Shown: positions 16,681 to 63,026, numbered from the stretch's first letter. The stretch: DNA of 64,000 bases from a virus (IMGVR_UViG_3300035698_024280), one strand, 5' to 3'. Made by a program: numbers and translations. The notes: generated by a model from the sequence alone, not told the origin.

Positions 16681-17454
16681 ATGCAAAGTGAAATTGACAA
16701 AGATATCGACTCTCTTCTGGATCTGTTTAGGAATCCGCCGGTAAACCCTCCTGGTGGAGATGTAGAGAATTATAAGGCAATCTTAGAGTTTAAGATAAAA
16801 AAATTATTAAGACAGAAGTTTGAAGATATTAATAGCTCTCTAGAGACTGATTTTCAATCTCTTATGGTACAACTTCGTCGTGGTTCTCAGATTGAAATGA
16901 AAAATACAGATAATAAGATGTCTGCTCAAAAGATGGCAATGGATCGGTTAGAGAATGATCCTAATCATTATACTAAACAGCCAGATATTAATGTACGGGA
17001 AAATTTTAATAGTAAAAATGATGCATTTAATAATATTAGTACGATAGCCGCCCTGCTTGAGAGAGAGGAGCTGGGCCTAGTTGAGACTATTAAGATTGGT
17101 GGAATTGACTCAGCAATTGAGGCCTTAATAGACTCAGGCAACGGAGCACATAATGTACTCCATGGGGTAGATATCGAAGATTCTGGGAATCAGGTATCAT
17201 TTACTACTGTCGATGATATAAGAATGACAGTAGATAAAGTAGATAATATAACTATCCACGTCGGCGCAGGCAATGATGAGGAAAGACCTGTAGTAGAGTT
17301 TACAATTGAACTAGGTAGTAAGGTATATCCTTCTGTTTTATTTAGTATAGGAGATAGAACAGAAAATCAGCACCCAGTATTAATAGGTGCTGATTTTATA
17401 AGCCAGATCGATGCGCTAATCGATGTAAATAAAACTATGGTAACTACTATCTAA
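16681..17454 (+). CDS. Protein with C-terminal retropepsin-like aspartic protease domain (RimK-associated 'Zn protease' family)
   Basis: EALIDSGNG, ERPVV, FSIGDR...PVLIG. Confidence 0.75.
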   Translation: MQSEIDKDIDSLLDLFRNPPVNPPGGDVENYKAILEFKIKKLLRQKFEDINSSLETDFQSLMVQLRRGSQIEMKNTDNKMSAQKMAMDRLENDPNHYTKQPDINVRENFNSKNDAFNNISTIAALLEREELGLVETIKIGGIDSAIEALIDSGNGAHNVLHGVDIEDSGNQVSFTTVDDIRMTVDKVDNITIHVGAGNDEERPVVEFTIELGSKVYPSVLFSIGDRTENQHPVLIGADFISQIDALIDVNKTMVTTI

Positions 17455-18091
17455 TATCTTTTTTTGCAAATTCAATAAACTTATAAAATTCTACGCGACT
17501 CGTATCACCTTTATCTAAAAAGGTACCAGTCATTCTTGCAGTTCTCATAGTAGAGTTATGTTTAATTCCTCTATTCGAGCAGCAAGTATGATTCGCTTCG
17601 ATTACTACTGCAACACCTTGATTATCTACACATATCTCATCAATAAATTTAGATATTTGAGAGGTCAAGGATTCTTGAACTTGGGGGCGGCGAGCAAACC
17701 AATCAACTACTCGATTTAACTTACTAAGACCTATAACCTTACCGCCAGCTGACGGTATATACCCAACGTGAGCAACGCCACTAAAGGGCATCCAGTGATG
17801 TGAGCATATAGATTTAAGATCAATGTTTGTTTGAGCGACTATACCATCATAATTATCAGTATTATCGAAAGCTGTAATTTTCGGACCATCGTGGAAGCAA
17901 CCAGAGCATATATCATTAACAATTGCCTTTGCAAATCGCATCGGTGTATCTCTTGAGTTTGGGTCTTCTTCCCACTTAAATCCGAGACTTGACATAAACT
18001 CTCCAAAGTGACCGGAGGCTTCTTCTATTCGCTTTTGACGCTCTTTATCATCAAGAGGCATATTTTGATTGGCATATTTAATAAATTCCAT
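17447..18091 (-). CDS. folE: GTP cyclohydrolase I
   Basis: SICSHH, IGLSKLNRVVDWFARRPQVQESLT, HTCCSNRG; Zn ligands present. Confidence 0.97.
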   Translation of the reverse strand: MEFIKYANQNMPLDDKERQKRIEEASGHFGEFMSSLGFKWEEDPNSRDTPMRFAKAIVNDICSGCFHDGPKITAFDNTDNYDGIVAQTNIDLKSICSHHWMPFSGVAHVGYIPSAGGKVIGLSKLNRVVDWFARRPQVQESLTSQISKFIDEICVDNQGVAVVIEANHTCCSNRGIKHNSTMRTARMTGTFLDKGDTSRVEFYKFIEFAKKDIR

Positions 18092-31311: not shown

Positions 31312-31316
31312 AATTT

Positions 31317-32111
31317 ATGAATATTGGTATAATTGGTTTAGGGGCTGTAGGTACTGCAAATTCGAATGGATTTAAGCAGGTTGGTAATACAGTAAAAGAG
31401 CATGATATCAAGATGGGGACATCTATTACTGATATTATAAATACAGAACTAGTATTTATATGTGTGCCAACTCCCGCAGCAGAAGACGGCTCATGCGACG
31501 TTAGTATAGTGCATACAATTATTAATGATCTTAATGATCTTAAATATCAAGGCGTCATTGCAATTCGTAGTACATGTTATCCGGGATTTACACAATCAAT
31601 TATAGATAAATATAAAGATCTCCATATTGCATTTGCTCCAGAATTTTTACGAGAGCGATTTGCCGATGAGGACTTCTTACACAATCATAATTTATTAGCG
31701 GTCGGTACTGAAGATGAAGAGATTTTTAATTTAATTACTCACGCACATTCATTTTTACCAAAAAATACTGTAAGGCTCACACCTACAGAAGCTGAATTAT
31801 TAAAGTATTATAATAATGTATACGCCGCATCACGAGTTGTATTTGCAAATATAATGTATGAGCTTTGCTCCAAATTAAATTGTAATTATACGGAAATTAA
31901 AAATGCATATATAAAGACTGGTAAAGCAACCGATCTATATCTTGATGTAAATGATAATATGAGAGGGTATGGTGGAATGTGTTTACCTAAGGATACTAAA
32001 GCTATAGCTGATCTTTTATCGAAGCATAATTTAGACTTCGATTTAATTAAAGCGATCGATAGTGACAATTCGAAGCTCAAGACTACAGTATTCCCCGGGA
32101 TGCGTTCATGA
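31317..32111 (+). CDS. Short UDP-glucose/GDP-mannose 6-dehydrogenase family protein
   Basis: GLGAVG, ICVPTP, RST..PG, PEFLRE, AELLKY..N, GYGGMCLPKD; the usual C-terminal domain is absent. Confidence 0.9.
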   Translation: MNIGIIGLGAVGTANSNGFKQVGNTVKEHDIKMGTSITDIINTELVFICVPTPAAEDGSCDVSIVHTIINDLNDLKYQGVIAIRSTCYPGFTQSIIDKYKDLHIAFAPEFLRERFADEDFLHNHNLLAVGTEDEEIFNLITHAHSFLPKNTVRLTPTEAELLKYYNNVYAASRVVFANIMYELCSKLNCNYTEIKNAYIKTGKATDLYLDVNDNMRGYGGMCLPKDTKAIADLLSKHNLDFDLIKAIDSDNSKLKTTVFPGMRS

Positions 32112-33058
32112 AAAATATACTTGTAACAGGTGCGGCTGGTTTTATGGGCAGCCATTTATGCGATCGCCTCCTTGCTGATGGTCATAATGTAATTGGTGTA
32201 GATAATTTATTCAGGGGTAGTATAAATAACTTACAGATGGGAAATCCTGCATTCGAATTAGATCAATGCGATTTATCATACGATAGTAGCAGATTGCATC
32301 TCCGACAGATTATCCAATCAGAAAAAATTGATACAGTATTTCATTATGCTGCAATCAATGGAACGGAATATTTTTATGATATACCGTATGAGGTTTTTAG
32401 GGATAATAATCAGATAACAAGAAATGTTCTAGGTGCATTAGCTGGTACGACTGTTAAAAAGTTTGTATATACATCCTCTTCTGAAGTTTATGGTGATGAG
32501 CCAATTATACCAACTCCAGAAACTAGTCCAATACTGCTTAATATATTTTCAGATAGAGACAGTTATGCTAGCTCGAAAGCTATGGGGGAATTTGATGTAA
32601 AATTTTCTTGTGAGAGGTCTAATATATCCTATGTTATTCTGAGACCATTTAATACATACGGGTCGAGAATGGTAGATACTAAATATGGTCAAGTTATTCC
32701 TGAATTTATTAAAAGAGTATCTGATGATGCGAAATTTACTATTATAGGGGACGGGACTCAGCAGAGAAGTTTCTGCCATATTAGTGATCATGTACGATTG
32801 GTAGTATCAGGTATTAATAAAATGCATAACGAGATTATAAATATTGGCAATCAAGAAATGATTACAATTAATAACTTAGCTGAGCGGATACATAAAATAG
32901 CCAATAGAGAATTTAAGCCGAAATATTTAACAGGGCGAGAATACGATACTCAACATAGACAGCCATGTATATCTAAAATAAATAAATTATATCCAGAGTA
33001 TAAATTTGCCAATTTAGATAAAGAGCTTAATATATTATATAATGAACCTACTTATTAG
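32108..33058 (+). CDS. Extended SDR nucleotide-sugar enzyme, UDP-glucuronate decarboxylase-like
   Basis: TGAAGFMG, TSSSEVYG, YASSK, RPFNTYG, GDGTQQRSF. Confidence 0.8.
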   Translation: MKNILVTGAAGFMGSHLCDRLLADGHNVIGVDNLFRGSINNLQMGNPAFELDQCDLSYDSSRLHLRQIIQSEKIDTVFHYAAINGTEYFYDIPYEVFRDNNQITRNVLGALAGTTVKKFVYTSSSEVYGDEPIIPTPETSPILLNIFSDRDSYASSKAMGEFDVKFSCERSNISYVILRPFNTYGSRMVDTKYGQVIPEFIKRVSDDAKFTIIGDGTQQRSFCHISDHVRLVVSGINKMHNEIINIGNQEMITINNLAERIHKIANREFKPKYLTGREYDTQHRQPCISKINKLYPEYKFANLDKELNILYNEPTY

Positions 33059-33437
33059 TATACCAGTTGGAGACGCCTTTGATAAATTGTCTATATTAGA
33101 AATTAAAAGAGATCATGCAGATAATAATACTCCACAAAAAACGAATATAGAGAATGAGATTAATTCTCTCAGCGGTGATTTAAATCATTTATGGGAAGGT
33201 GGAGGTGATAGACTTCTCAATCTGTATGATGAGTTGAAATCGACTAATTTAGAGATGTGGGTCATTGAAGATTCTATTAGACTAAAGGAGAAAGCTAAAC
33301 AATTTGATTCAGAGTTCATTCAGCTAGCTAGAGATGTATATTACACTAACGATAGACGGTGTAGAGAAAAAAATAAGATAAGTAAGTTAATGGGGAGCAA
33401 TTTAGTTGAAGAGAAAATTTACGAAAGTTATGAGTAA
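33042..33437 (+). CDS. DUF6165-like protein
   Basis: GDAFDKLSILEIK, LKSTNLEMWVIEDSIR, FIQLARDVYYTNDRR...VEEK. Confidence 0.75.
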   Translation: MNLLISIPVGDAFDKLSILEIKRDHADNNTPQKTNIENEINSLSGDLNHLWEGGGDRLLNLYDELKSTNLEMWVIEDSIRLKEKAKQFDSEFIQLARDVYYTNDRRCREKNKISKLMGSNLVEEKIYESYE

Positions 33438-34164
33438 AGTTTGTTTAATATATCAGCCAGCAGGTATAGGTGATATATTATTTTGCCAGGGAATTGCGAA
33501 GAATTTTGTAGATCGTGGATATAGAGTTATATTTCCAATTTTAAATCGGTTGATGTTTTTACAGGATTATATTAATAACCCCGGTGTAGAGTTTGTAGAC
33601 GAAGCCTTAGAGTTTGAATATAAAGATAAGTATAATCAATCTATAGGGTCCTATAATGAAGATAATTTTTCATTTGTAAATACAGATACATCAACTAGCC
33701 AGATACCCTCAAATAGCCCTAATGGTATATATATAATGCCATCAAAATATGAACATATAGGTCTAAATTTTAGAGAGTGGTCATCGGGATTCAATCTAAT
33801 ACGAAATAAGGCTAGGGAGGATAAACTTTTCTATGACATTTTAAAGCTAACCGATAAAGATGAGTATGCAGTATGTAATAACAAGTACGGTACGCCACCA
33901 AACACTATTGAATACCCAATCCCAGAAATTGAATCTAAACGAAGAATAGTACATATGGAATTTATAGATGGTACTAATATTATGGACTGGTGTAAGGTGC
34001 TTGAACGGGCAAATGGTATAGTAACTGTGGATACCTGTATATTATATATTATGACGATGCTGAAAATAACACATTATGATATGTACTACTGCTATCTGCG
34101 ACCTGGTTGGACTAAAGAGCAATATAATGAAATTACACCCTTTGCTTGGAAATATTTAAACTAA
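33430..34164 (+). CDS. Putative glycosyltransferase (GT9/GT11-like GT-B)
   Basis: QPAGIGDIL at N-terminus, TVDT near C-terminus; start set at MSKV. Confidence 0.55.
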   Translation: MSKVCLIYQPAGIGDILFCQGIAKNFVDRGYRVIFPILNRLMFLQDYINNPGVEFVDEALEFEYKDKYNQSIGSYNEDNFSFVNTDTSTSQIPSNSPNGIYIMPSKYEHIGLNFREWSSGFNLIRNKAREDKLFYDILKLTDKDEYAVCNNKYGTPPNTIEYPIPEIESKRRIVHMEFIDGTNIMDWCKVLERANGIVTVDTCILYIMTMLKITHYDMYYCYLRPGWTKEQYNEITPFAWKYLN

Positions 34165-34171
34165 TAAAGTT

Positions 34172-34783
34172 ATGGGAGATTTAAGTATATTTGACTTATC
34201 ACATATTAAGAATACTAATAATATAAATGTATTAGTAGAAACAGGCACATTTAAAGGTGACGGTACCTTGTTTGCAAAGTCTGTTTTTGATACAGTACAC
34301 TCTATAGAGATAGATGAAGAGCTTTATAATGACGCTACCGAAAGATTTAAAGATGAGCCAAATATTAATATATATTTAGGAAATTCAGTAGACATATTAC
34401 CTAGAGTATTACCCGCTATTACTGAAAATGTATTATTTTGGCTGGATGCTCACTTCCCAGGTGCAGATTGTCATAAAAAAGCATATGATAGTGAGTCGGA
34501 TAAAGTAAAAAGAATTCCACTCACTGAAGAGTTAAAGCTAATCTGCTCCTTAAGATCTGGTAACGATGTAATTATTATAGATGATTTATGGTTATATGAG
34601 GATGGTCCGTTCGCATGGGGATCGTGGGATGATCACTCCGCAACGTGTGGGTTTAATGTTACTAGAGAAGACCTAATGAAGGGAGAGACTCTTGATGAGA
34701 GTATAGAATTGCTCTCCAATACGCATAATATCCGACGGCAGTACGACCATCAGGGATATCTCATCTGCACACCTATTATTTAA
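34172..34783 (+). CDS. Class I SAM-dependent methyltransferase
   Basis: VETGTFKGDG, HSIEID, GNS, FWLDAH, IIDD. Confidence 0.8.
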   Translation: MGDLSIFDLSHIKNTNNINVLVETGTFKGDGTLFAKSVFDTVHSIEIDEELYNDATERFKDEPNINIYLGNSVDILPRVLPAITENVLFWLDAHFPGADCHKKAYDSESDKVKRIPLTEELKLICSLRSGNDVIIIDDLWLYEDGPFAWGSWDDHSATCGFNVTREDLMKGETLDESIELLSNTHNIRRQYDHQGYLICTPII

Positions 34784-34784
34784 T

Positions 34785-35780
34785 ATGAAAGACAATCAAA
34801 CAAAAACAGCTCTGGTATTAGGGGCAGGTGGATTCATCGGGAATCACCTTGTTAATAGATTAAAGGATGAAGGTTATTGGGTTCGGGGGGTAGATTTAGT
34901 ACCACCAGAATATGAAAAAATATCCTCCGCAGATGAATTTATTATAGGTGATTTAAGAGATACCGGATTTACATCTGTATGTATGACCTCCCCAAATCAA
35001 ATATCCAAGACTGCAGGAGGCTTTGATGAAGTATACCAATTAGCGGCTGATATGGGTGGCGCTGGGTATATATTTACTGGAGATCATGACGCAAATGTGA
35101 TGCATAATTCTGCTACAGTTAATCTTAATGTAGCTCACCACTCAAATCTGCTGGGGGTAAAGAAATTATTTTACAGTAGCTCTGCATGTATGTATCCTGA
35201 GTATAATCAACTTGATCCTAATAACCCTAATTGCTCAGAAGATTCTGCATATCCAGCCGCTCCAGATTCAGAGTATGGATGGGAAAAACTGTTTAGTGAG
35301 CGACTGTATTTAGCTTATGCTAAAAACTATAAATTGAATGTAAGAATCGCGAGATTTCATAACATATACGGCCCTAAGGGTACATATAAGGGAGGGAGAG
35401 AAAAGGCTCCGGCTGCAATATGCAGAAAGGTAATTACTGCTACAGATACTATCGAGATTTGGGGTGACGGGAAACAAACTAGATCATTTTTATATATAGA
35501 CGAATGTATTGAAGCTATTCGAAGAATTATGGAGAGTGAGGTAACGGAACCACTCAATGTTGGCTCGGATGAAATGGTAACAATAAATGAATTAGTAAAT
35601 ATAGCTGAGACCGTAGAAGGTAAACAGTTACGTAGAGAATATAAACTAGACGCACCACGGGGAGTAGCTGGTAGAAATTCCTGCAATAAACTAATTATGG
35701 AAAAACTTGGTTGGGCCCCAAACTTTTCGCTTGAAAAAGGTATAGGTATAACCTATAATTGGATAAAGAACCAATTATGA
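34785..35780 (+). CDS. GDP-mannose 3',5'-epimerase-like SDR
   Basis: GAGGFIG, YQLAADMGGAGYI, YSSSACMYPE, PDSEYGWEK, RFHNIYGP, REKAPAAICRK. Confidence 0.9.
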   Translation: MKDNQTKTALVLGAGGFIGNHLVNRLKDEGYWVRGVDLVPPEYEKISSADEFIIGDLRDTGFTSVCMTSPNQISKTAGGFDEVYQLAADMGGAGYIFTGDHDANVMHNSATVNLNVAHHSNLLGVKKLFYSSSACMYPEYNQLDPNNPNCSEDSAYPAAPDSEYGWEKLFSERLYLAYAKNYKLNVRIARFHNIYGPKGTYKGGREKAPAAICRKVITATDTIEIWGDGKQTRSFLYIDECIEAIRRIMESEVTEPLNVGSDEMVTINELVNIAETVEGKQLRREYKLDAPRGVAGRNSCNKLIMEKLGWAPNFSLEKGIGITYNWIKNQL

Positions 35781-36370
35781 AATTAACAAATATTCCAGTA
35801 TATGACGGAGAAATGATCCACGATCGCTTTGCGTATAAATACTTCCGAGAAAATACATCACCGTTAGGCAATATTGTAGCTTTTAGAGCTCCAATGGATG
35901 TACCCGTACATAATATGATTGATCTGGAGGATGTGCTTGAAGAGGATACTATTACTAGTAGAGATGCCATTAATTTTTGTTGGGAAATACCCAACCTTTG
36001 CGCACTCGGCGCTGTAGCATTTCAAAGATTATTTAATACTCATATAGCATCAATTTTATCTTCTAAAATAATAAATAAGCCTATTGCTGTAGATGGTGAT
36101 GACCTAATGGTTCCAGAAAAGTTTACAGGGCATGACGGCGTTCAATATGACGAAGGTAAGTGTAGTGTTTCTATTACATACTCAAAATACGACGTCGCAT
36201 TAGGACATACGGGTATTAATGTTGTTGCTGGTACAAAGGCACCAGGATTTGCATATTCTACTAATATGAATGATGAGCAATGTGAAGAATTTATGCGTCT
36301 ATGTATTGAGCAGTTTTACTTTATTTTAGGAGGCCTTTTTACTGCTACGACTAAAATTATAATAAAATGA
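35777..36370 (+). CDS. DUF366-like protein (lipoate/biotin ligase-like fold)
   Basis: YDG..IH..FAY, IVAFRAPMDV, EDV, DGDDL, GKCSVSI, GHTGINV; ATGA overlap with the upstream stop. Confidence 0.65.
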   Translation: MKLTNIPVYDGEMIHDRFAYKYFRENTSPLGNIVAFRAPMDVPVHNMIDLEDVLEEDTITSRDAINFCWEIPNLCALGAVAFQRLFNTHIASILSSKIINKPIAVDGDDLMVPEKFTGHDGVQYDEGKCSVSITYSKYDVALGHTGINVVAGTKAPGFAYSTNMNDEQCEEFMRLCIEQFYFILGGLFTATTKIIIK

Positions 36371-44466: not shown

Positions 44467-44804
44467 TGGTAACATTCAGGCAATATATTATGGGACCGAT
44501 TAATGAATCATGCAGCTCTCCTGCTTTCTTTAGAGCAAAAAAGTTATTACTATCTGCTTTACCTTATATCCCTAGAAAATTTAACAAAAAAGTAAAGATT
44601 TGGGAAGATACTCTAAACTCCCCTAAACTAGTAAGGTCGAAGATCAATATACATTATATAGCAGCAGATATAATAGATACTTTAGGCCCAGGTACTCGTC
44701 GAGTTTTTCCAAAGATAATAGGGAATGATATATATACTTTAGCAAGAGCAGTATCTTCTAAATACAAGCCACGGCCAAAGACTGACCCTGATAATGATGC
44801 CTAA
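44466..44804 (+). CDS. Small hypothetical protein with capsid-targeting-like N-terminus
   Basis: MVTFRQYIMGPINE-S; TAATG coupling. Confidence 0.6.
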   Translation: MVTFRQYIMGPINESCSSPAFFRAKKLLLSALPYIPRKFNKKVKIWEDTLNSPKLVRSKINIHYIAADIIDTLGPGTRRVFPKIIGNDIYTLARAVSSKYKPRPKTDPDNDA

Positions 44805-45258
44805 GAAAAGAAAAAAGCCATCTACACAATATAAGCAAGGTATATTTAAACCAAAAAATTCTGATAAATTTGATGGCACAGCTGCAAAATATAGAAGCTC
44901 ATATGAATTAAAATTTTTTAGATGGTGTGATGATAATATAAATGTACAAAAGTGGGGATCGGAAAATGTAGTAGTCCCTTATTTGAACCCACTTACTAAT
45001 AAAGTTTCTCGGTATTTTGTAGATAATTTTATAGTCTTAACGGAAGGGTGTAATACAAAAAAATATCTTATAGAAATTAAGCCAAAACGCCAAACAAGGC
45101 CACCATGTGTAAATAGATATAGGAATAATAAAAACCTCATATATGAAACAAACATGTGGGAGCAAAATCAGGCGAAGTGGTCTGCTGCAGATAAATGGGC
45201 TAAAAAACACGGTGCAGAATTTATCATATTAACTGAAAAGGAACTTTTTAATAAATAA
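44794..45258 (+). CDS. gp4: Head completion protein gp4 (TnsA-like nuclease fold)
   Basis: YRSSYELKFFRWCD, WGSE, RYFVD, IEIKP, KWSAA. Confidence 0.92.
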   Translation: MMPKKRKKPSTQYKQGIFKPKNSDKFDGTAAKYRSSYELKFFRWCDDNINVQKWGSENVVVPYLNPLTNKVSRYFVDNFIVLTEGCNTKKYLIEIKPKRQTRPPCVNRYRNNKNLIYETNMWEQNQAKWSAADKWAKKHGAEFIILTEKELFNK

Positions 45259-49092: not shown

Positions 49093-49851
49093 TTAAGATT
49101 CCCCTAAAAGAAACTCTTGAGTACGAATCATCGATTCTGGAGTACCCATATCTGACCAGAAATTATTAAATGCATACCATTCAGTTTCTTTACGATTTGC
49201 ATAATACTTATTTATATCTGTGATCTCTAATTCACCTCTAAGAGAAGGTTTCAGCTGATCTGCAACTGTATAAACTTGCGATGTATAATAATACATCCCA
49301 GTTACTGCCGAATCGGATATAAATGTTTTAGGTTTTTCTATTATATCAATTATCACAGAGTCAGTAAAACCATCAAATTTAGCAATACCAAATCGTTCCC
49401 ATTCGTCAGTATGTGATAAAAATAAGCCAGACTTTACATCTGGAGAGTTGGAGCACATATTTATGAAATTAATTATGTTGTTGTCCTCTTCATAGAAGTT
49501 ATCCCCTAAGATCACTATGAAGTCTTCAGAATTTGTAAACCCTTGGGAGAGCTTAAGAGCGCTTGCGATTCCAGGGGGTCTCGATGGATCGCTCATGTCT
49601 TGTATTTTATAAGAAAAATCTAACCCGCTCGCAAATCCATCCCCCAAATACTCGACTATTTTACCGCAGTGCTCTTGAGAGGTAATTATTAAAATGTCTG
49701 TTATACCAAGCGACTTCAATGTATTCACAGGGTATTGTATCATTGGCGTTGCTCCTGATTTAGAATATACCGGAAGTAAATGTTTATTTGTTGAGCTCGT
49801 GGCTGGGTTCATTCGAGTGCCTAAGCCCCCCGCTAGTATAATACCTTTCAT
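49093..49851 (-). CDS. rmlA: Glucose-1-phosphate thymidylyltransferase-like
   Basis: GIILAGGLGTR, KHLLPV, LGDN, EKP, RGELEITD, WSDMGT. Confidence 0.92.
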   Translation of the reverse strand: MKGIILAGGLGTRMNPATSSTNKHLLPVYSKSGATPMIQYPVNTLKSLGITDILIITSQEHCGKIVEYLGDGFASGLDFSYKIQDMSDPSRPPGIASALKLSQGFTNSEDFIVILGDNFYEEDNNIINFINMCSNSPDVKSGLFLSHTDEWERFGIAKFDGFTDSVIIDIIEKPKTFISDSAVTGMYYYTSQVYTVADQLKPSLRGELEITDINKYYANRKETEWYAFNNFWSDMGTPESMIRTQEFLLGES

Positions 49852-50708
49852 AAATTATTTGCTGCTGCAACATCAATTAGTCGTTGGTGAGCACTTGGTA
49901 TAGGTCTACCTAACGCTTCAGTTATTTTATCTACTGATAATACACAATTGCTTCTTCTACATTTCATAATATTCTGTGACAAAAGATCATCTGTTGAGTA
50001 AAATCTCTTTTTATAAATATAACTACTACAAGTATTGAGTATATCTTGTGCAGTTTTAGCGCCAGGGTTGACTATATTATATATGCCTGGTTTCGGTCTT
50101 AGGGATATAATATCATTTACGCAATCAGCCAAATCGGGTATATATGTTAGAGAATTAGGGTAATTTACGAGTTTATTATATTTGAGAATCTTACCGATAT
50201 AATTTTTATCCTCTGAAATATTATTATCAAACGGCATTCGAATTCTTAATAGATAATCACGATTTAAATAGCCTCCATATTTTAATCTCTCTTCAAATTC
50301 GGATTTACATTGCGAGTAATACGAAGCCGTGGGGTTTGATTTTCCAAAGTTATGAGGGTCATCTTCACTATAAGCTACAATTTCATTTGTATCATTATTA
50401 TATATACACCCAGACGAAATAGTTATAGTTGGGGTTGGTGAATTTTTATGGATAACTAAATTATCCATAACATTACGAGATCTACACTCGATCTTATTAT
50501 CTTCACAGCTATCTACATTCGGCCGACCAGTATAACCGTAGCAATTTACAATAATATCAGGATTGTATTGCTCTTTAATTTGCGCTAACCCGCATAAACT
50601 AGTATAGTCAATATCCTGCCTAGATATTAAATTAGTATTATGCACCCTACTTAATATTGGTAAAATTTTAGTTCCAATATACCCTCTACCTAATATGACC
50701 ACATTCAT
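49848..50708 (-). CDS. NDP-4-keto-6-deoxyglucose 3,5-epimerase/4-reductase (RmlD / plant NRS-ER type)
   Basis: GRGYIG, GYTGRPNVDSCE, ISSGCIY, YSQCK, LRIRMP, PNSLT; start set at MNVV (50708). Confidence 0.8.
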   Translation of the reverse strand: MNVVILGRGYIGTKILPILSRVHNTNLISRQDIDYTSLCGLAQIKEQYNPDIIVNCYGYTGRPNVDSCEDNKIECRSRNVMDNLVIHKNSPTPTITISSGCIYNNDTNEIVAYSEDDPHNFGKSNPTASYYSQCKSEFEERLKYGGYLNRDYLLRIRMPFDNNISEDKNYIGKILKYNKLVNYPNSLTYIPDLADCVNDIISLRPKPGIYNIVNPGAKTAQDILNTCSSYIYKKRFYSTDDLLSQNIMKCRRSNCVLSVDKITEALGRPIPSAHQRLIDVAAANNL

Positions 50709-50760
50709 TACTATCATATTTAATATACATAATAAGCTTATCAACAACCTAAATACTAAT

Positions 50761-51294
50761 ATGGTTTGGTTTACGGCAGATACACATTTTTTTGAAGATA
50801 TTAATACTATGAAATATTACGGTCGTCGATTTAGATCTGTAGCAGAGCAAAATGCCACAATAATAGACAACATAAATGAGATGGTATCTGTAGAAGATAC
50901 CTTATGGCATATCGGTGATGTATTTAAGGGTAGTAACGATCAAGGTTCAGAAGTATTATCCAAAATTAAGTGTAAAGACAAATATTTAGTTCGTGGGAAT
51001 TATGATACTGATGAAAGATTGCCGGTTTTAACACAATATTTTAATCGCGTTTTTGACGCTGATGCTACTATAGAGATTGACAATCAATCAATATATATGA
51101 ATCATTACCCGATAAACTGCCCAGAGACAAAATTTTCTATAACTGGACATATTCATGAGAAGTGGAAAATAAAAAAAGAAATGATTAACGTCGGGGTAGA
51201 CGCCAATCATTTCTTTCCGCTATCTTTTACAGATATTATGTTTTATAAGAACGCAATGGATAACCATTACGACGATAATGTATTTACTGCTTAG
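50761..51294 (+). CDS. Calcineurin-like metallophosphoesterase
   Basis: Read directly on the + strand (atggtttggtttacggcagat at 50761): DTH, HIGD, GNYD, NHYP, GHIH; TAAATA 5 nt upstream. Confidence 0.85.
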   Translation: MVWFTADTHFFEDINTMKYYGRRFRSVAEQNATIIDNINEMVSVEDTLWHIGDVFKGSNDQGSEVLSKIKCKDKYLVRGNYDTDERLPVLTQYFNRVFDADATIEIDNQSIYMNHYPINCPETKFSITGHIHEKWKIKKEMINVGVDANHFFPLSFTDIMFYKNAMDNHYDDNVFTA

Positions 51295-52246
51295 GCGTTT
51301 TTACATGAGGTATTTTAGGATCGCTTAACGCTACGTGCATTAAGGAATTTTTACTAACACGCTCTGGATTAATATCTATACCACCGCGTCGTGCATATAA
51401 GCATTTTACACTAAGCTCTTCAGGCTTTAATTTATCCCATATACGCTTATATATAGTTTCACAAATTTCTTCATGAAAGTGACACTCATCACGGAACGAT
51501 ATAATATATTTTAGCATACTAATAGGATCGATTGTTTCGCCTTCCTTCTTAATATATATATAAACATCTCCCCAATCAGGTTGGGATGTTACTCTACAAT
51601 TAGATTTCAGTAGGGAGCTATGGTAACATACTCTTGCACATTCGGATTTAACAACTTTAAGTAGTTTAGGATCCTCTTGATATTTTGTAAAATTAACTTC
51701 GTTTAGTACATAATCTTCTTCAATAGTACTATACACTGGCAGTAGCGAGTCTTTAGCATGTGTGTAGTGCTCCTCAGATGAGCTATTTGATATACCATGG
51801 TCCCACTCCCAATATGGCGATATCTTACACTTCAATATCTGAGAATTTGTGGCGAATACAACCTCTACTTCAGTATCTAATAATTGAGATAAGTCCTTTA
51901 TGACAACTTGCTGTATATTAGCAGCAACTTCAGTAGCAGTATCCCCCAGGGGGGTCATATTGAAGGAATTTAAATATAGTTTAAAGGATTTTGATTCTAC
52001 AATATACTTACTAGTACATCCGTACACCATTTTAATTACCCCAGTCACCGGAAGACCTGAGTCTGTTAAAGCTGATACTTCGTATGCATTCCATACATCA
52101 GACCCTTTAAAGGGTAAGTCATCATCCTTTATCTTTAAATGTACTCTATTGGATGATCTCTCCTCTCGCACTAATAGACTTGAATCATATTTAGATTTAT
52201 ATTTAGAGGTTTTACCCAGGTGTTTGCTAATTTTTGTATTATCCAT
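51284..52246 (-). CDS. queF: NADPH-dependent preQ0 reductase QueF, two-domain YqcD type
   Basis: WNAYE, VESKSFKLYLNSF (NADPH motif), LKSNC..TSQPDWG (catalytic Cys/Asp), FHEEICE, YARRGGIDINP. Confidence 0.95.
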   Translation of the reverse strand: MDNTKISKHLGKTSKYKSKYDSSLLVREERSSNRVHLKIKDDDLPFKGSDVWNAYEVSALTDSGLPVTGVIKMVYGCTSKYIVESKSFKLYLNSFNMTPLGDTATEVAANIQQVVIKDLSQLLDTEVEVVFATNSQILKCKISPYWEWDHGISNSSSEEHYTHAKDSLLPVYSTIEEDYVLNEVNFTKYQEDPKLLKVVKSECARVCYHSSLLKSNCRVTSQPDWGDVYIYIKKEGETIDPISMLKYIISFRDECHFHEEICETIYKRIWDKLKPEELSVKCLYARRGGIDINPERVSKNSLMHVALSDPKIPHVKTPKQ

Positions 52247-52247
52247 T

Positions 52248-52799
52248 TTAAAAATTTATTAAAGTCTTCCTAATTTTTTCCATTCTCTCATTTACAGTTC
52301 CAGATAATATAGTATAAGATACTTTACCCTCTAGCCTCTCGAGTCTCTTCTCAAATATTTCAATTATATCTTCCCGAAATGTTTCATTTACGCTTCTCAC
52401 ACCATCGTCTTCCATAGTAATATCTGCATCAGGGTATGTATAAAATATATGATCTATTTTTGTAATTAACTCTTCAAATACATTCTCAGCATAATCTAAT
52501 ACCCAACCGTCTACACTTCCCTGATCATACAGCCACTGCGTATAGACTACCCCATCTAAGATGCATCTATCCATAACAGTACTATATTTTGCCTCTAAGT
52601 AATTTTGAAGATGTTGATGGATGATACATAATTGAGTAATATTATCACCACTCTCATTTATGTTTAAATTATGCTTCCGCTTTACTTGCCTAGTTACTTC
52701 TAACACAAAGTCGAAATTTTCAAAAGAGCGATCATTGCGGCAAAGATTCAGTAATGTTGTTTTGCCTGTATTCTGAGCACCTGTAAATGATATTATCAT
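52248..52799 (-). CDS. P-loop nucleotide monophosphate kinase (AAA_28/thymidylate kinase-like)
   Basis: FTGAQNTGKTT, MDRCILDGVVY, EDDGVRS. Confidence 0.82.
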   Translation of the reverse strand: MIISFTGAQNTGKTTLLNLCRNDRSFENFDFVLEVTRQVKRKHNLNINESGDNITQLCIIHQHLQNYLEAKYSTVMDRCILDGVVYTQWLYDQGSVDGWVLDYAENVFEELITKIDHIFYTYPDADITMEDDGVRSVNETFREDIIEIFEKRLERLEGKVSYTILSGTVNERMEKIRKTLINF

Positions 52800-53368
52800 A
52801 CTATTAGTTTAAGCTTTAATCTTAAAAAATCAACCCATAGATTTAAGGAGTGGGCCCTTATTTCTTTATTTAACCCCTCTATATTAATAAAAGATGTTTC
52901 TGATAGATTAAACGATGATTCACTTATTATCTTCCCTTCATCTACAGCGGGTACTACTTCATGTATAACAGAGCCAGCCTCGGTATAATTATCTATATTA
53001 ACCCATATTCTCTCAACTGGATCTTTACCTCGTAGTTCCGGATATTGTGAAATAAGACCCGGATGACCGTTATATATATTATAATTACTACAAATCTCAG
53101 GTGGTATAATTTTTAACCATCCATTTAAAGTAACTATACACTTACTACCGCAATCTTTTAAAATTTCCTTATATGTATCTATTGTAACATTAGGACCAGT
53201 CATAATACATCGATTTTTATCTGAGTGTTCATACTCAGATAAAAGTTTCGGTGATATATTTGATATGGTATTATTAGAAACAATAACGTCTGGAAATCTT
53301 CCGATGCGTCTAGATATATCCAATATCTCTGAACCAGTTTGACTAAAAAATGCTATCCAATACTTCAT
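52796..53368 (-). CDS. PurN-like formyltransferase, probable preQ1 formyltransferase (DpdN-like)
   Basis: FSQTGS, YNGHPG (NxH), GSVIHEV...VDEG (catalytic Asp); context inside the deazaguanine operon. Confidence 0.8.
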   Translation of the reverse strand: MKYWIAFFSQTGSEILDISRRIGRFPDVIVSNNTISNISPKLLSEYEHSDKNRCIMTGPNVTIDTYKEILKDCGSKCIVTLNGWLKIIPPEICSNYNIYNGHPGLISQYPELRGKDPVERIWVNIDNYTEAGSVIHEVVPAVDEGKIISESSFNLSETSFINIEGLNKEIRAHSLNLWVDFLRLKLKLIV

Positions 53369-53376
53369 AAGTTATA

Positions 53377-54180
53377 TTAAGGGTTTAGTATATGATTAAA
53401 TTTCCGCATATTGTATTCTATTAAATCCAGTGTATCCTTAGACGGTGTATCCCCATCAATGAAATCCTCATTATCAGCTAAATGTACTTCTTCTGTGAGA
53501 CCTAAATTACCTGCATATTTTAGCGATTTAAGTCCAGCTATAACAGGGTTGCTCGTATCTACAGACCTTATATTATATATATTATTATTTTTGTAGTAAC
53601 TAAACTCTCTAGCAAGAGAGCAACCTAAGAGATGGTGAGGCTTATCCCAGTTCCAAATTCCAGCTGATATGAGGGTTTCAATTAACCTAATTCTACCACT
53701 TACTCTCATATCTGCTACAGACTTACCATGGCCAGTATATTCAAAATATTTCATATCAAATGATATGGCAATATAATCGGCATTTTCGCTCATATGCTTA
53801 TAACAGTTTACAATTTCTTGGTATGTTGTCCCTTGTACCGTTCCAATCTGTAGACCTGCTACATTTTTAAAATTAGCGTTCCAACGCTGAAAATTAAATA
53901 TGGTCTCTTCCGAGTCTTCTAATACATCTGGAACTATATAATATGTCGGTTCTAGTTTATCAATCCATTTTGAATATTGCTTAGGGTCAAATGATTTTTT
54001 GAGCTCATATATACTATTATCTAAGATTACCTCACGATCATTTAATAAAGCTACCTTAAAAAAATTATAATATCTATCGTATCTGTCAAAATGATGTACC
54101 AGCGCATAATCATAATCTGTGTGTTGTTGAACCATCCCCATTAAATTTATAGGGGCCTCATGAGCTTTCATTATATTCAT
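53377..54180 (-). CDS. dpdA: TGT-fold TIM-barrel protein, DpdA-like (probably DpdA3 type)
   Basis: ILDNSIYE, IVPDV, VQG, HHLLGC, RSVDTSNP align with TGT/DpdA core motifs; heads the operon with queF. Confidence 0.7.
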   Translation of the reverse strand: MNIMKAHEAPINLMGMVQQHTDYDYALVHHFDRYDRYYNFFKVALLNDREVILDNSIYELKKSFDPKQYSKWIDKLEPTYYIVPDVLEDSEETIFNFQRWNANFKNVAGLQIGTVQGTTYQEIVNCYKHMSENADYIAISFDMKYFEYTGHGKSVADMRVSGRIRLIETLISAGIWNWDKPHHLLGCSLAREFSYYKNNNIYNIRSVDTSNPVIAGLKSLKYAGNLGLTEEVHLADNEDFIDGDTPSKDTLDLIEYNMRKFNHILNP

Positions 54181-54186
54181 ATATTA

Positions 54187-54192
54187 ATTATA
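54187..54192 (-). promoter_or_regulatory. -10 box for the dpdA-formyltransferase-kinase-queF operon
   Basis: TATAAT 6 nt before ATG 54180; -35 is weak. Confidence 0.5.
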
Positions 54193-54229
54193 CGGTGGAT
54201 CCTTTGAGTTTCCACAATAAATATAATAA

Positions 54230-58182: not shown

Positions 58183-59184
58183 TTAGAAATCGTCATCTAG
58201 AGCTCCCGCTGACTGATAGTCAATTACCCGAGTCTCAAAGAAGTTTTTTGCTTTAATAAGATCTTGTACCTCTGATAAGAAGTCGAAGGGGTTTGTATCA
58301 TTAGGGAATCTATAATCTAGACCGATACCTTCAAGCCTTCTATTACCTATATATTGCATATATTTAACAAACATATCTGAATTAAGCCCTAACACACCAC
58401 GAGGTAATACATCCTTTGCATACGCAATCTCTAAATCGACAGCTGTCTTTAAATACCCAACCAACTCATCCTGAAAGTCTTTAGTCCATATTTCCGGATT
58501 TTGCTTTATTATAGTTCTTATAAGTTGGGAGCCAAATTGAATATGTAGAGATTCATCTCTGAGTGTATATTCAATTTGCTCTCCAATCCCTGGTAGTTTA
58601 GATTTTAATGCTAATAACATTGCAAACCCAGAGAAGAAGAAAGTTCCCTCACATACAATCCAGAACAGAAAGCAGGACTTTAAGAGAGCCTTAACTCCTT
58701 CAGGTGTAGATGAATCAATATCGTTGATATTGACATCTCTTGTAACTTCCATTAAAAAGTTATCTTTAGCAGCAATAGACGGTATATTTTCATATGCTTC
58801 GTATACATCTTCAGCTTTAAGATCTGTAATAGAGTCGCACATATATACAATAGTATCGTTATGCAAACACTCCTCCCAAATCTGTCTAGCCATATATTGT
58901 CTACATTCTGGGTCAGTTATATATTTAAATAGCGTAACTAAATTATTACCTACTAAAGATTCAGATCCAGCAAAAAAACCGAGGCATCGACGCACAACCA
59001 ATTTTTCATCAGCTGTCAACACACCATTACTCCAGTTTTGTATATCTCTTGTCATCCCTATATCCTCAGGATTCCAATTATTATTTTTTCCTCTCTTATA
59101 CAGATCCCATGCCCATTTATTAACATGGGGTAGTATCTGATTTACCCCCTCTTGTACTTCTCCAAATATTTTCCCTGTTTTCAT
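58183..59184 (-). CDS. nrdB: Class I ribonucleotide reductase beta subunit with class Ic (R2c) signature
   Basis: FFAGSE75SLVGNN, EECLH108NDTI112, CEG, RDESLH, NFFETRVIDYQ. Confidence 0.93.
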   Translation of the reverse strand: MKTGKIFGEVQEGVNQILPHVNKWAWDLYKRGKNNNWNPEDIGMTRDIQNWSNGVLTADEKLVVRRCLGFFAGSESLVGNNLVTLFKYITDPECRQYMARQIWEECLHNDTIVYMCDSITDLKAEDVYEAYENIPSIAAKDNFLMEVTRDVNINDIDSSTPEGVKALLKSCFLFWIVCEGTFFFSGFAMLLALKSKLPGIGEQIEYTLRDESLHIQFGSQLIRTIIKQNPEIWTKDFQDELVGYLKTAVDLEIAYAKDVLPRGVLGLNSDMFVKYMQYIGNRRLEGIGLDYRFPNDTNPFDFLSEVQDLIKAKNFFETRVIDYQSAGALDDDF

Positions 59185-59202
59185 ATTATTTATAGTTAAA
59201 AA

Positions 59203-61677
59203 TTATTGACAGCTTTCACATGTAGGGTCATCGATTCTGCAGACCATAGCGCTCATATCTTCTGTTGTAGTCGCTTCTAATGCACTCTGATTAATTGAAG
59301 CCTTTTCTACCTGAGATGCACTTTTATTTCTTAGGTAGTATGTAGTTTTAAGACCTATATTCCAGGCGTGCATATATATGTCGTTTAAATGCTTCATACT
59401 CGTCTTATTATTAAATATATTTACGGACATCCCCATATCAATCCATTTACCCCTTACTGCAGCTGCAGTAAGCAATGACATTTGATCCACATTAAATGCA
59501 TCTCTGTATTTTAAAGCAACATCTGAAGGTATCTCAGGTATTTTAGACAGATCACCATCACATCCCTTTATTCTACTAACCATATCATGGCTCCATAAAC
59601 CTAAGGCTTTCATATCTGCAACAAACCAATCATTAATTACAGTAAAATCTCCACCTAATACACTACGAGCAAACAGCACATTAAAATAAGGCTCAGTACA
59701 AGATGAGCATCCAGCAATTTGAGAAATAGTCGCAGTTGGGGCAATAGCCATAGTATTTGAATTTCTCATACCGTAATTCTTAACATGGGATCTAACTATT
59801 GACCAATCTAATAGCTTACTCTCTCCCCTATATAGAGCTTCGTTCTGGCCTCCCTCTCTCTGTTTTAGTAAATCTAAATGAGTATCAATTGGGAATTTAT
59901 TCTGATCCCACAGCGATCCTTTATAGGTGCTATATTTCCCTCTTTCTTTTGCAAGCTTGCTACTATTAAGTATAGTGTGATAAGATATAAATTCATATAG
60001 GTTGTCGCTATATTCTATAGCCTCCTGAGAGTCATATAGAACATCTAAAGCAATAAATAAATCGTGCCACCCCATAGTTCCCATACCTACCGGTCTATGT
60101 CTAGTATTGGAATTTTTTGCCTCTTGCGTAGGGTAGAAATTAATATCAATGACATTATCCAGCATTCTCATACCAGTGGCAATAGTACTAGCAATCTTAT
60201 TATAATTAATTGAATATTTACCATCTAAATTTTTAATGATATGCTCTTTAAGATTAATTGAACCTAAATTACATACTGCAGTTTCCCCATATTCATCAAT
60301 TTCTCGATTATTATTTTCTTTATATTTGGTAGCTTTGCTATGTAATAGAATTTCAGTGCAAAGATTAGAGCTGTTTACTGTACCTTCATGTTGGTTTGAG
60401 TATCTTATATTACTAGGATCTTTAAAAGTAATCCATGGGTGGCCAGTCTCGAATATCATTCCTAGCATTTTTTTCCAAAGATCTTTTGCCTGTACCTCTT
60501 TAAATAATCGCAGAGTTCCAGCCTTACCTAATATTACATATTCCCAATATTTATTTTCAAACTCCTCACCAAAAAGACCATGAAGCTCAGGAGTTTCGTC
60601 AGGAGAAAACAAATACCAAGGGCCATCTTTTTTTACTTGATTTATAAATAAATCTGGGATCCAATTTGCAGTATTCATGTCATGTGTTCGTCTCCGCTCG
60701 TCACCTACATTTTTCTTTAGAGCTAAAAAGTCTTCAATGTCAAAGTGCCATGTTTCGAGATATCCACATCCTGCGCCCTTACGTTTACCTCCTTGGTTAA
60801 TGGCTACGAGCATATCATTATATAGTTTCCAAAAATACACTGCACCTTGAGTATTACCATTAGTCCCCTTTATATATGCATTACTTCCTCTGAATGGTGT
60901 TAGGTCCATACCTAAACCTCCCGCAAATTTTGATTTCTGTGCCTCTTGATGCAGACCATCAAATATACCAAATACTGAATCCTCAAATGTATTTAAAAAG
61001 CATGAGCTTAATTGATTTCGAGTAGATCCTGAGTAAAATAACGTTGGCGTCGAACTCATATACGAAAACGTAGATAATAAATTATAAAATTCAATAGCTC
61101 TTTTTGTTTTATTATCTTCTTTAATAGCTAACCCCATTGCTACTCGCATTACCCAAGCTTGAGGAGTCTCTACTACTTTACCATCTATTCTAAATAAATA
61201 TCTCTCAGCTACTGCTGCAAGACCCTCAAATTGAAAATTGAGATCTCTGTCAGGTATTAAGGCCGCAGAAATTTCATCCATATCGAATTCAGTAAGGAGC
61301 TCTGGATTTACAATTTCTTCATCAATTAGAGACTTTAAATTGTCTATAAAGCATTTACTATATTGCTCTTCAAACGCCTTATCGTTAGTATTACTCTTAA
61401 AACAAGTTTTATATATGGTAAACAATAAAAGACGAGCAGCAACATATTTATATTGTGGGTCTTCTTCAACTAAAGCCCTTGCAGACTTTATCAGTGACTC
61501 ATCTATCTCTTGAGTAGTAACACCATCATATAACTTAACTTCTGCATTATATATAACTTGACGATGGTCTACATCATCTAGCCCCTTACAAGCCCTTTTG
61601 ACAGTTTGAGTAATTTTCCTTGCATCAAAATTAACGGATTTACCGCTTCGCTTTATAACAGTTATAGTATTGTTCAT
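59203..61677 (-). CDS. nrdA: Class I ribonucleotide reductase alpha subunit with ATP cone
   Basis: ATP cone VIKRSG, SSCFL, NLCTEI, CNLGSINL, APTATIS, TYYLR, C-terminal CESCQ. Confidence 0.97.
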   Translation of the reverse strand: MNNTITVIKRSGKSVNFDARKITQTVKRACKGLDDVDHRQVIYNAEVKLYDGVTTQEIDESLIKSARALVEEDPQYKYVAARLLLFTIYKTCFKSNTNDKAFEEQYSKCFIDNLKSLIDEEIVNPELLTEFDMDEISAALIPDRDLNFQFEGLAAVAERYLFRIDGKVVETPQAWVMRVAMGLAIKEDNKTKRAIEFYNLLSTFSYMSSTPTLFYSGSTRNQLSSCFLNTFEDSVFGIFDGLHQEAQKSKFAGGLGMDLTPFRGSNAYIKGTNGNTQGAVYFWKLYNDMLVAINQGGKRKGAGCGYLETWHFDIEDFLALKKNVGDERRRTHDMNTANWIPDLFINQVKKDGPWYLFSPDETPELHGLFGEEFENKYWEYVILGKAGTLRLFKEVQAKDLWKKMLGMIFETGHPWITFKDPSNIRYSNQHEGTVNSSNLCTEILLHSKATKYKENNNREIDEYGETAVCNLGSINLKEHIIKNLDGKYSINYNKIASTIATGMRMLDNVIDINFYPTQEAKNSNTRHRPVGMGTMGWHDLFIALDVLYDSQEAIEYSDNLYEFISYHTILNSSKLAKERGKYSTYKGSLWDQNKFPIDTHLDLLKQREGGQNEALYRGESKLLDWSIVRSHVKNYGMRNSNTMAIAPTATISQIAGCSSCTEPYFNVLFARSVLGGDFTVINDWFVADMKALGLWSHDMVSRIKGCDGDLSKIPEIPSDVALKYRDAFNVDQMSLLTAAAVRGKWIDMGMSVNIFNNKTSMKHLNDIYMHAWNIGLKTTYYLRNKSASQVEKASINQSALEATTTEDMSAMVCRIDDPTCESCQ

Positions 61678-62554: not shown

Positions 62555-62986
62555 TTAATACATCTCCCAAGGATAGACTATCCACTCGTCTTTTTTTACA
62601 GTTTTAGCTGTGAAATCGGGAGTAAATATTGCTGAAGGTCTGTAGTGGAGGCTAGCGAATAATAGTATTGAACCATCTCCCTTATATTTCTGATAAATGC
62701 CCCCCATAGTTTCTCCAGAATCACATATATCGTCTATGTATAATGAATTACCTCTTTCTGAATTTCCATAAATACTTAAATCCCCACGGGTCTCCCCATC
62801 ATACGATTTAGCTGTTATTAAATATAGAGGTAATTTTAAAATTCTAGAAATTAAGCTGGCGGGGATTACACCACCTCTCTGTATGCCCACTACCTGATCA
62901 ATCTCTGTATCGGATCGATTCACCTTAGCTGCAATATATGCGCAATATTCCTCGACCTCTCCCCAACTAATATTTAACTTTTTCAT
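62555..62986 (-). CDS. Type I phosphoribosyltransferase, xanthine/guanine PRT (Gpt)-like
   Basis: GIQRGG, YIDDICDSGETM (PRPP loop), WIVYPWE; start set at MKKL. Confidence 0.88.
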   Translation of the reverse strand: MKKLNISWGEVEEYCAYIAAKVNRSDTEIDQVVGIQRGGVIPASLISRILKLPLYLITAKSYDGETRGDLSIYGNSERGNSLYIDDICDSGETMGGIYQKYKGDGSILLFASLHYRPSAIFTPDFTAKTVKKDEWIVYPWEMY

Positions 62987-62994
62987 ATGGCTAT

Positions 62995-63026
62995 AAAAAA
63001 GCGGGACCATCGATCCCGCTCTTTTT
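62995..63026 (-). terminator. Intrinsic, probably bidirectional terminator
   Basis: aaaaaa-gcggga-ccatcga-tcccgc-tcttttt. Confidence 0.8.

Follow-up and report, generated by a model that had tools for sequence, protein, structure and literature searches.

A DpdA3/DpdN-type 7-deazaguanine operon with an embedded kinase in an uncultured marine T4-like phage, and a possible pre-replicative route to modified DNA

The viral DNA IMGVR_UViG_3300035698_024280, of which the whole stretch of 64,000 nucleotides analysed is called the window below, carries at positions 51284-54180 an operon for a TGT-fold barrel protein of the DpdA3 type, a DpdN-like formyltransferase, a P-loop kinase and a QueF, which we describe here as a probable 7-deazaguanine DNA-modification system. 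A first-pass annotation, made from the sequence alone, had called four coupled minus-strand genes in this interval, and all four open reading frames (ORFs) were recovered (Table 1). In the order just given, they are separated by an 8-nucleotide gap, a 4-nucleotide overlap and a 1-nucleotide gap. The window belongs to an uncultured marine T4-like myovirus and has genes for gp20 portal, gp15, prohead protease, a gp23-type capsid protein and a class Ia ribonucleotide reductase (RNR). No nucleotide-level match was found among 50,697 phage records, and the window is 100% identical to a 194,996-bp (195-kb) metagenomic contig that is present in several samples. Flanking sequence was read on this contig (records L096-L098, about 30 kb), which together with the window gives about 94 kb of phage genome.

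The barrel motifs DNSIYE, VQG, HLLG and SVDTSNP, which the first-pass annotation had listed, all occur in the protein encoded at 53377-54180, and residues D54, N55, S56, E59, Q116, G117, H183-G186 and D208-P212 are invariant among 28 homologues. No model of Pfam or NCBIfam matched the protein. Its identity is 40% to DpdA of Flavobacterium phage immuto (6e-55), which is annotated as a DNA guanine transglycosylase, and 38% to gp056 of Campylobacter phage CP220 (1e-37), in both cases over 87% or more of the length. Aligned as one family, these proteins share 46 invariant columns; the immuto and CP220 proteins were named DpdA3 by Cui, Hutinet et al. (PMC10516641). In metagenomes, the family numbers 2,689 protein clusters or more.

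An AlphaFold model of the barrel has a predicted local distance difference test (pLDDT) score of 94.3, and Foldseek finds TGT with it at 3.5e-9. Superposition on ArcTGT (1iq8), DpdA (7ui4) and the Zymomonas mobilis TGT gave Z scores of 17-18 and a root-mean-square deviation of 3.0 Å over 227-234 residues (VIA-align). The aligned part is thus about 230 of the 360-413 residues of the TGT and DpdA chains, and DpdA3 is a minimal barrel. It has two cysteines in the whole protein and lacks the zinc-binding CxCxxC motif; the four listed motifs lie at the C-terminal ends of barrel strands, as do the invariant D54, D85 and D208, which are candidates for the counterparts of the catalytic residues Asp102 and Asp280 of TGT. 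A DpdA3 profile matched none of the PDB sequences, and hhalign against the Escherichia coli TGT placed VQG and HLLG correctly and DTSNP three residues off, at a probability of 1.5%. The isoelectric points of DpdA3 proteins (4.7-6.6) were set aside as too weak an argument against DNA binding. Some DpdA3 genes (the P0121 and P0122 set) contain an intein with a LAGLIDADG endonuclease (634 amino acids), and others are lengthened at the C-terminus by about 200 amino acids that resemble a GIY-YIG homing endonuclease; the usual sites of inteins and homing endonucleases are essential replication or nucleotide-metabolism genes. The extra C-terminal part of P0122 was considered as a kinase and rejected.

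The formyltransferase scores 29.3 bits against PF00551 (cut-off 26.1), matches PurN at 2.7e-7 and is 40% identical to immuto DpdN (YP_010114479; 7e-34), with no other matches among the phage records. Its NxH motif and Asp, described earlier as intact, correspond to N100, H102 and D143, which do not vary among 17 DpdN sequences and match their counterparts in an alignment with E. coli PurN. The N-terminal Ser..Gly loop (S9..G12) also aligns with PurN, in which it binds the 5'-phosphate of the substrate. The gene lies directly 3' of the DpdA3 gene here and in 35 related loci. DpdN is predicted to formylate the aminomethyl group of preQ1, whether as base, as nucleotide or in DNA; for the immuto DpdN, too, formylation is a prediction of the published work (PMC10516641).

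The QueF contains both PF14819 (QueF_N, 2.8e-31) and PF14489 (QueF, 5.9e-22), each above its cut-off. Against TIGR03138 it scores 246 bits (4.4e-73), under the curated 293, and is therefore a divergent member of that family. It is bimodular, of the YqcD type, and its translation contains the NADPH motif as ESKSFKLY (consensus E(S/L)K(S/A)hK(L/Y)(Y/F/W)), the catalytic Cys within SNCRVTSQPDWG and an FHE motif.

The window also encodes FolE and a long-form QueD-like protein, and the two remaining genes of preQ0 synthesis, queC and queE, were sought in the flanks. A queC gene lies 4.2 kb past the left window end (Pfam label). The assignment of queE is only probable: a divergent QueE-like gene about 0.8-1.7 kb past the right end has an IQGEG...C-x3-C N-terminus and 24% identity to a QueE-like radical SAM protein, and matched no Pfam model. 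It is well supported by these assignments that FolE, QueD, the QueE-like protein and QueC would make preQ0, which QueF would reduce to preQ1. A stand-alone gene for a class II glutamine amidotransferase (L096:19924-20619) occurs 2.5 kb from queC; there are other phages in which Gat and QueC are fused, and the fusion protein makes archaeosine-type bases.

The precedent that the first-pass annotation named, of a Flavobacterium phage with a PurN-like DpdN and formylated dPreQ1, is correct and is immuto, whose DNA contains 2'-deoxy-7-(formylamino)methyl-7-deazaguanosine (fdPreQ1) and no detectable dG; guanine is replaced completely in DpdA3 phages (PMC10516641). We regard it as very probable that the four genes are a DpdA3/DpdN module for fdPreQ1, and by sequence the operon is a further member of the already known immuto system. 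The earlier statement that this phage makes fdPreQ1 is backed by homology, namely the identity of about 40% in both DpdA3 and DpdN, and by synteny with immuto. On these grounds, we predict fdPreQ1 in the virion DNA, with most or all of the guanine replaced.

According to the first-pass annotation, the third gene of the operon, the kinase, is not needed for base exchange in replicated DNA. The kinase scores 48.7 bits against AAA_28 (cut-off 27) and matches phrog_2107 at 1.5e-24. Its model (pLDDT 92) finds the deoxynucleoside kinases (dNKs) dAK, Dm-dNK and dCK and the thymidylate kinase TMPK as best Foldseek matches, at about 1e-7, and in a profile search of the PDB the closest solved sequence relative is the NadR ribosylnicotinamide kinase (RNK; 6.8e-5), followed by TMPK (1.2e-4). 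Residues G7, G12, K13, R37, R78, D82, R135 and R172, in the P-loop, DR-x and lid Arg motifs, are invariant. It had been annotated as a P-loop nucleoside monophosphate (NMP) kinase. The P-loop kinase part of this name stands; "NMP" is too narrow and should read nucleoside or NMP kinase, since the dNK, TMPK and NadR-RNK matches rank equally and do not distinguish the two substrates. Model and sequence point to a small-molecule kinase, and the P-loop protein near DpdA3 has a dNK/TMPK fold. No ParB-like (DpdB-type) protein was found among the window proteins scanned, which covered part of the window.

The phage has a second kinase, a paralogue of the first, located near FolE and QueD. Orthologues with 53% and 42% identity occur in two related phage genomes, and CP220 has a 30% match. 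Because this paralogue is conserved, two phosphorylation steps are possible.

To place the kinase in a wider context, we collected DpdA3 relatives from IMG/VR. A scan with a single DpdA3 protein gave no match; an alignment-based profile scan gave 581 relatives, from which 80 loci were kept. The kinase has a homologue in 73 of the 78 loci that have at least 1.5 kb of downstream sequence, within 3 kb in 67 and directly adjoining in 40. When DpdA3 proteins were clustered, 21 of 24 clusters at 70% identity and 7 of 8 at 60% had the kinase. The linkage recurs in deeply separated lineages: both immuto and CP220 have the kinase downstream of DpdA3, and CP220 has an HD and P-loop fusion on the opposite side. 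In Cellulophaga phage phiST, the gene directly upstream of DpdA3 encodes a P-loop kinase of an unrelated family (AAA_18), MazG is two genes off and DNA polymerase lies downstream. In Bacillus phage BSTP12 a P-loop gene stands beside a DpdA-like gene and Pol I.

Related operons also contain genes that act on the nucleotide pool. In nine, a gene that matches PF18909 (dATP/dGTP diphosphohydrolase; 3.5e-19) stands between DpdN and the kinase, and one has an inorganic pyrophosphatase (5e-49) between DpdA3 and the kinase or QueF. MazZ enzymes convert dGTP to dGMP for the pre-replicative Z-genome pathway (PMC8342488). A search for PF18909 in four full phage records gave no match, and the controls were likewise without a match. 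Two further kinds of ORF occur between DpdN and the kinase. Those of about 115 amino acids form a ten-member family (L063:9610-9957) with a weak match to DUF1599, a "nucleotide modification associated domain"; those of 176-181 amino acids (L062:11536-12066 and six homologues) matched nothing in any search.

The kinase also occurs in gene fusions. One protein of 487 amino acids joins the kinase to QueF and is followed by a DpdA3 gene; another, of 332 amino acids (P0124, L091:6001-6999), joins it to a GNAT acetyltransferase in a cluster with QueF, QueD, a Gpt-like phosphoribosyltransferase (PRTase), Dut and FolE beside Pol III alpha. DpdA3 itself is fused to QueF in a protein of 568 amino acids. 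No DpdA3-kinase fusion was found among proteins of at least 469 amino acids (DpdA3 query) or at least 322 (kinase query), and a 309-amino-acid gene in L091 was rejected as a DpdA3 candidate, not being DpdA3-like. The substrate of QueF is a free base. The fusion of the kinase to QueF or to an amine-acylating enzyme fits small-molecule metabolism better than work on DNA.

The side chain may vary among these operons. A GNAT acetyltransferase replaces DpdN in some of them (L067:10791-11363), and this replacement, with the kinase-GNAT fusion, predicts an N-acetyl-preQ1 base in DNA; we know of no description of such a DNA base. An ornithine cyclodeaminase/mu-crystallin gene (2.3e-70; L058:9395-10321) and a cupin gene (L050:6974-7423) are inserted in two related DpdA3 operons, a hint of further side-chain chemistry on preQ1.

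We give about even odds (a probability of roughly 0.5) that at least part of the route precedes replication and acts on free nucleosides or nucleotides. It is an equally balanced proposition that DpdA3 is not a DNA-modifying enzyme at all and would be the first TGT-fold transglycosylase acting on a free deoxyguanosine nucleotide or nucleoside, which, with two dedicated kinases, a variable set of dGTP hydrolases and a PRTase that recycles guanine, would feed a 7-deazaguanine deoxynucleoside triphosphate (dNTP) to the polymerase. DpdA3 would swap guanine for preQ1 on the free deoxyguanosine compound, which in relatives with MazZ-like, MazG or HD genes would come from dGTP hydrolysis. The PurN-like DpdN would formylate the aminomethyl group, the operon kinase, possibly with its paralogue, would rephosphorylate the modified nucleotide, and a host nucleoside diphosphate kinase would complete the triphosphate for incorporation by the phage polymerase. 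The Gpt-like PRTase of the window, likely a recycler of the released guanine, may return it to GMP and hence to GTP for FolE.

The first-pass annotation had suggested such a route from the presence of the kinase, and it now has comparative support, short of proof, in the linkage of the kinase, the dGTP-hydrolase genes of relatives, the fusions and the kinase fold. The absence of the zinc motif, the match of about 230 residues and the retained PurN Ser..Gly loop also count towards a nucleotide-level route. So do two published observations: DpdA3 alone is reported to have failed in a DNA-modification test in E. coli, and the nucleoside of 7-amido-7-deazaguanine (ADG) was found in the cytoplasm of CP220-infected cells (PMC10516641).

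Several points weigh against the pre-replicative proposal. Most of the 80 loci belong to related marine myoviruses, so that the synteny is partly inherited and the locus counts are not independent. Kinase homologues with 25-29% identity occur without DpdA3 in Streptomyces phages, beside a methyltransferase. Searches of the window and the flank of about 30 kb for homologues of the PF18909 genes of related operons, of the phiST MazG and of the CP220 HD protein gave none. To our knowledge, the characterised enzymes of the TGT superfamily all use a polynucleotide (tRNA or DNA), and none uses a mononucleotide. Finally, the only DpdA3 paper concludes that insertion is post-replicative, an inference drawn because a DpdA is always present; the kinase is nowhere mentioned in it (PMC10516641). 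A literature search of incomplete coverage found no paper that proposes a pre-replicative 7-deazaguanine route.

The gene beside the kinase in the Streptomyces phages was tried as a DpdA3 and rejected, being an FkbM methyltransferase. In phage Yaboi (genes 96-97, L083:6211-7609), the kinase follows this FkbM-type methyltransferase in an overlapping frame, and the arrangement occurs in 44 Streptomyces phages. The two may be another nucleotide-level modification pair.

The same fdPreQ1 module could instead work as published, and we hold this to be a real possibility, if somewhat short of an even chance. DpdA3 would then exchange guanine for preQ1 or preQ0 in new double-stranded DNA and DpdN would formylate dPreQ1 in the DNA, with the kinase and hydrolases serving nucleotide supply or salvage, or with the kinase as an ATP-using helper of DpdA3, as DpdB is for bacterial DpdA. 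Post-replicative exchange agrees with the polynucleotide substrates of all known family members and with the published interpretation (PMC10516641), and the barrel matches the DNA preQ0 insertase DpdA (7ui4; Z 17.6) as well as it does the tRNA enzymes. The failure of DpdA3 alone in E. coli also fits a missing ATPase partner, and kinases are common in T4-like genomes such as this one, in which structural and nucleotide-metabolism genes surround the operon. However, the relatives of the kinase are small-molecule kinases of deoxynucleosides or their monophosphates, and not DNA-dependent ATPases or ParB-like proteins. A housekeeping role leaves unexplained why kinase and DpdA3 go together in unrelated phages, why phiST has a non-homologous replacement and why the kinase is fused to QueF or to an acyltransferase. 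Nor does it account for the presence within the operon of genes for a MazZ-like dGTP diphosphohydrolase and a pyrophosphatase. Among cultured phages, tblastn found the kinase family in no genus beyond the DpdA3 carriers and one Streptomyces phage group.

A route through ribonucleotides seems improbable. Here the Gpt-like PRTase would join preQ1 or preQ0 to phosphoribosyl pyrophosphate, the kinase would make the diphosphate, RNR would reduce it, and DpdA3 would clear residual guanine from the DNA. There is precedent in ToyH and TubE, the deazapurine PRTases of the toyocamycin and tubercidin pathways. The PRTase gene heads the RNR operon in the window and is orthologous (3.6e-22) to an immuto gene between QueE and FolE; such genes lie within the deazaguanine cluster both in immuto and in the unrelated phage L091, and PF00156 occurs in four of the five DpdA3 phage records searched. 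The fifth, CP220, has no PF00156 match and yet replaces all of its guanine, and DpdA3, the universal component, would be nearly redundant. The PRTase is also closest to ordinary xanthine-guanine salvage enzymes (in the PDB, the purine PRTase 1vdm at 1.1e-14 and the E. coli enzyme at 4e-10), so that guanine recycling fits at least equally well. That the cluster serves queuosine- or archaeosine-type modification of tRNA, or host takeover, rather than DNA is most unlikely, for although a TGT fold and a preQ1 pathway are the toolkit of tRNA queuosine, the zinc subdomain that tRNA TGTs possess is missing from the barrel, queuosine synthesis involves neither a formyltransferase nor a nucleotide kinase, and the closest characterised relatives, immuto and CP220, modify their DNA completely (PMC10516641).

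Table 1. Features of the deazaguanine operon and of associated genes (window coordinates)
Feature	Position	Strand	Evidence
DpdA3-type 7-deazaguanine transglycosylase, 267 amino acids	53377..54180	-	kinship to immuto DpdA and CP220 gp056; phrog_19058 at 3.5e-43
DpdN-like PurN-family formyltransferase, 190 amino acids	52796..53368	-	PF00551 at 8.8e-7; kinship to immuto DpdN
P-loop kinase, dNK/TMPK fold, AAA_28 family, 183 amino acids	52248..52799	-	AAA_28 at 1.3e-12; Foldseek
Bimodular (YqcD-type) QueF, 320 amino acids	51284..52246	-	PF14819, PF14489, TIGR03138
Sigma-70-like promoter match directly 5' of dpdA3	54187..54214	-	TGGAAA-16-TATAAT, 10/12; consensus match only
Terminator-like hairpin just 3' of queF	51173..51218	-	20-pair stem, then T run on minus strand
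Calcineurin-like metallophosphoesterase, convergent with queF	50695..51294	+	PF12850 at 6.3e-7; phrog_547 at 3.1e-40
FolE, GTP cyclohydrolase I	17447..18091	-	PF01227 at 6.9e-46; immuto FolE 5.5e-67
QueD-like 6-carboxytetrahydropterin synthase, long form, 228 amino acids	19125..19811	+	PF01242 at 6.9e-16; TIGR03367 3.3e-8; immuto QueD 7.3e-32
Second kinase, paralogue of operon kinase, 234 amino acids	20649..21353	+	AAA_28 at 1.2e-7; hhalign 98% to operon-kinase family
Class Ia ribonucleotide reductase, alpha and beta	58183..61677	-	translations; Pfam labels on identical contig
Xanthine-guanine phosphoribosyltransferase (XGPRT, Gpt)-like	62555..63010	-	PF00156 at 2e-15; PRK09177 XGPRT at 7e-18

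The operon is bounded by a promoter match and a strong terminator-like hairpin (Table 1). A riboswitch-like leader was sought 5' of dpdA3, where the intergenic space is 49 nucleotides, and Rfam gave no match in the window. The metallophosphoesterase gene that converges on queF has a homologue in only 1 of 82 DpdA3 loci, and its membership in the pathway is uncertain.

Sugar-nucleotide genes are numerous at 29663-35780 and 49093-50747 and include two for glycosyltransferases, a UDP-glucose dehydrogenase-like gene, two for epimerase/dehydratases, and RmlA-like and RmlD-like genes, the last two directly adjoining the deazaguanine operon. They could serve glycosylation of DNA or virion, or changes of the host surface. 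Just past the first of these sets, at 35759-36370, is a gene for a DUF366 protein (2.1e-20), a family known chiefly from archaea. Two nucleases of mobile-element type are encoded at 8118-8567 and 44794-45258, one a SegE-like GIY-YIG homing endonuclease and the other with an N-terminal domain resembling that of Tn7 TnsA, as assigned by the Pfam labels of the identical contig. Just left of the window, two ORFs of 513 and 378 amino acids (L096:11234-13959) encode a split T4-type family B DNA polymerase.

With this operon, a system known from a single cultured Flavobacterium phage is extended to uncultured marine T4-like phages, which are abundant. If the pre-replicative proposal is true, complete replacement of guanine by 7-deazaguanines would proceed through the nucleotide pool, as it does for 5-hydroxymethylcytosine (hmC), 5-hydroxymethyluracil (hmU) and 2-aminoadenine. 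It would also give the TGT superfamily a new class of substrate, provide enzymes for making 7-substituted 7-deaza-dGTPs and change the view of how DpdA3 phages evade restriction.

Among known systems, that of immuto is the most similar. It has the same four genes in the same order (kinase 35% identical, DpdA3 and DpdN each 40%), and FolE, QueD and the Gpt-like PRTase are common to both phages. A small ORF between DpdA3 and DpdN in immuto is missing here, and the biosynthetic genes, which form one cluster in immuto, are spread over more than 60 kb. The 2'-deoxy-7-amido-7-deazaguanosine (dADG) system of Campylobacter phage CP220 and Firehammervirus (gp056) shares a DpdA3 of 38% identity with an AAA_28 kinase directly downstream, and guanine is completely replaced in CP220 (PMC10516641). 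Unlike the present phage, CP220 has neither QueF nor DpdN, its product is dADG, an HD and AAA_33 fusion lies upstream of its DpdA3, and no PRTase was found in it. The 2'-deoxy-7-deazaguanosine (dDG) cluster of Cellulophaga phage phiST (CGPG_00065) resembles the operon in its DpdA3-type barrel and adjoining P-loop kinase-like gene; a MazG is nearby, and the DNA polymerase lies beside it. Its DpdA3, however, is 22% identical to that of CP220 at E=4 and has no match to the window barrel at E<=1e-5, its kinase is of the AAA_18/AAA_33 family, and its product is unsubstituted 7-deazaguanine.

The bacterial DpdA/DpdB system and phage DpdA1 and DpdA2 (for example 7ui4) have in common with DpdA3 the TGT barrel (Z 17.6 over 229 aligned residues) and a 7-deazaguanine base. 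These DpdA proteins are about 400 residues long and modify DNA at low to partial levels (PMC10516641); no sequence-level similarity to the window barrel was found in Pfam or in the profile search of the PDB, and DpdA3 lacks CxCxxC. The Z-genome pathway (MazZ, PurZ and DatZ; PMC8342488) differs in that its base is altered by amination, compared with the base exchange proposed here, and no PF18909 gene was found in the window. The logic of our proposal is nevertheless that of the Z-genome, in which the dNTP is taken to the monophosphate, the base is rebuilt, and the product is rephosphorylated and polymerised, and MazZ-2-type PF18909 genes lie inside related DpdA3 operons.

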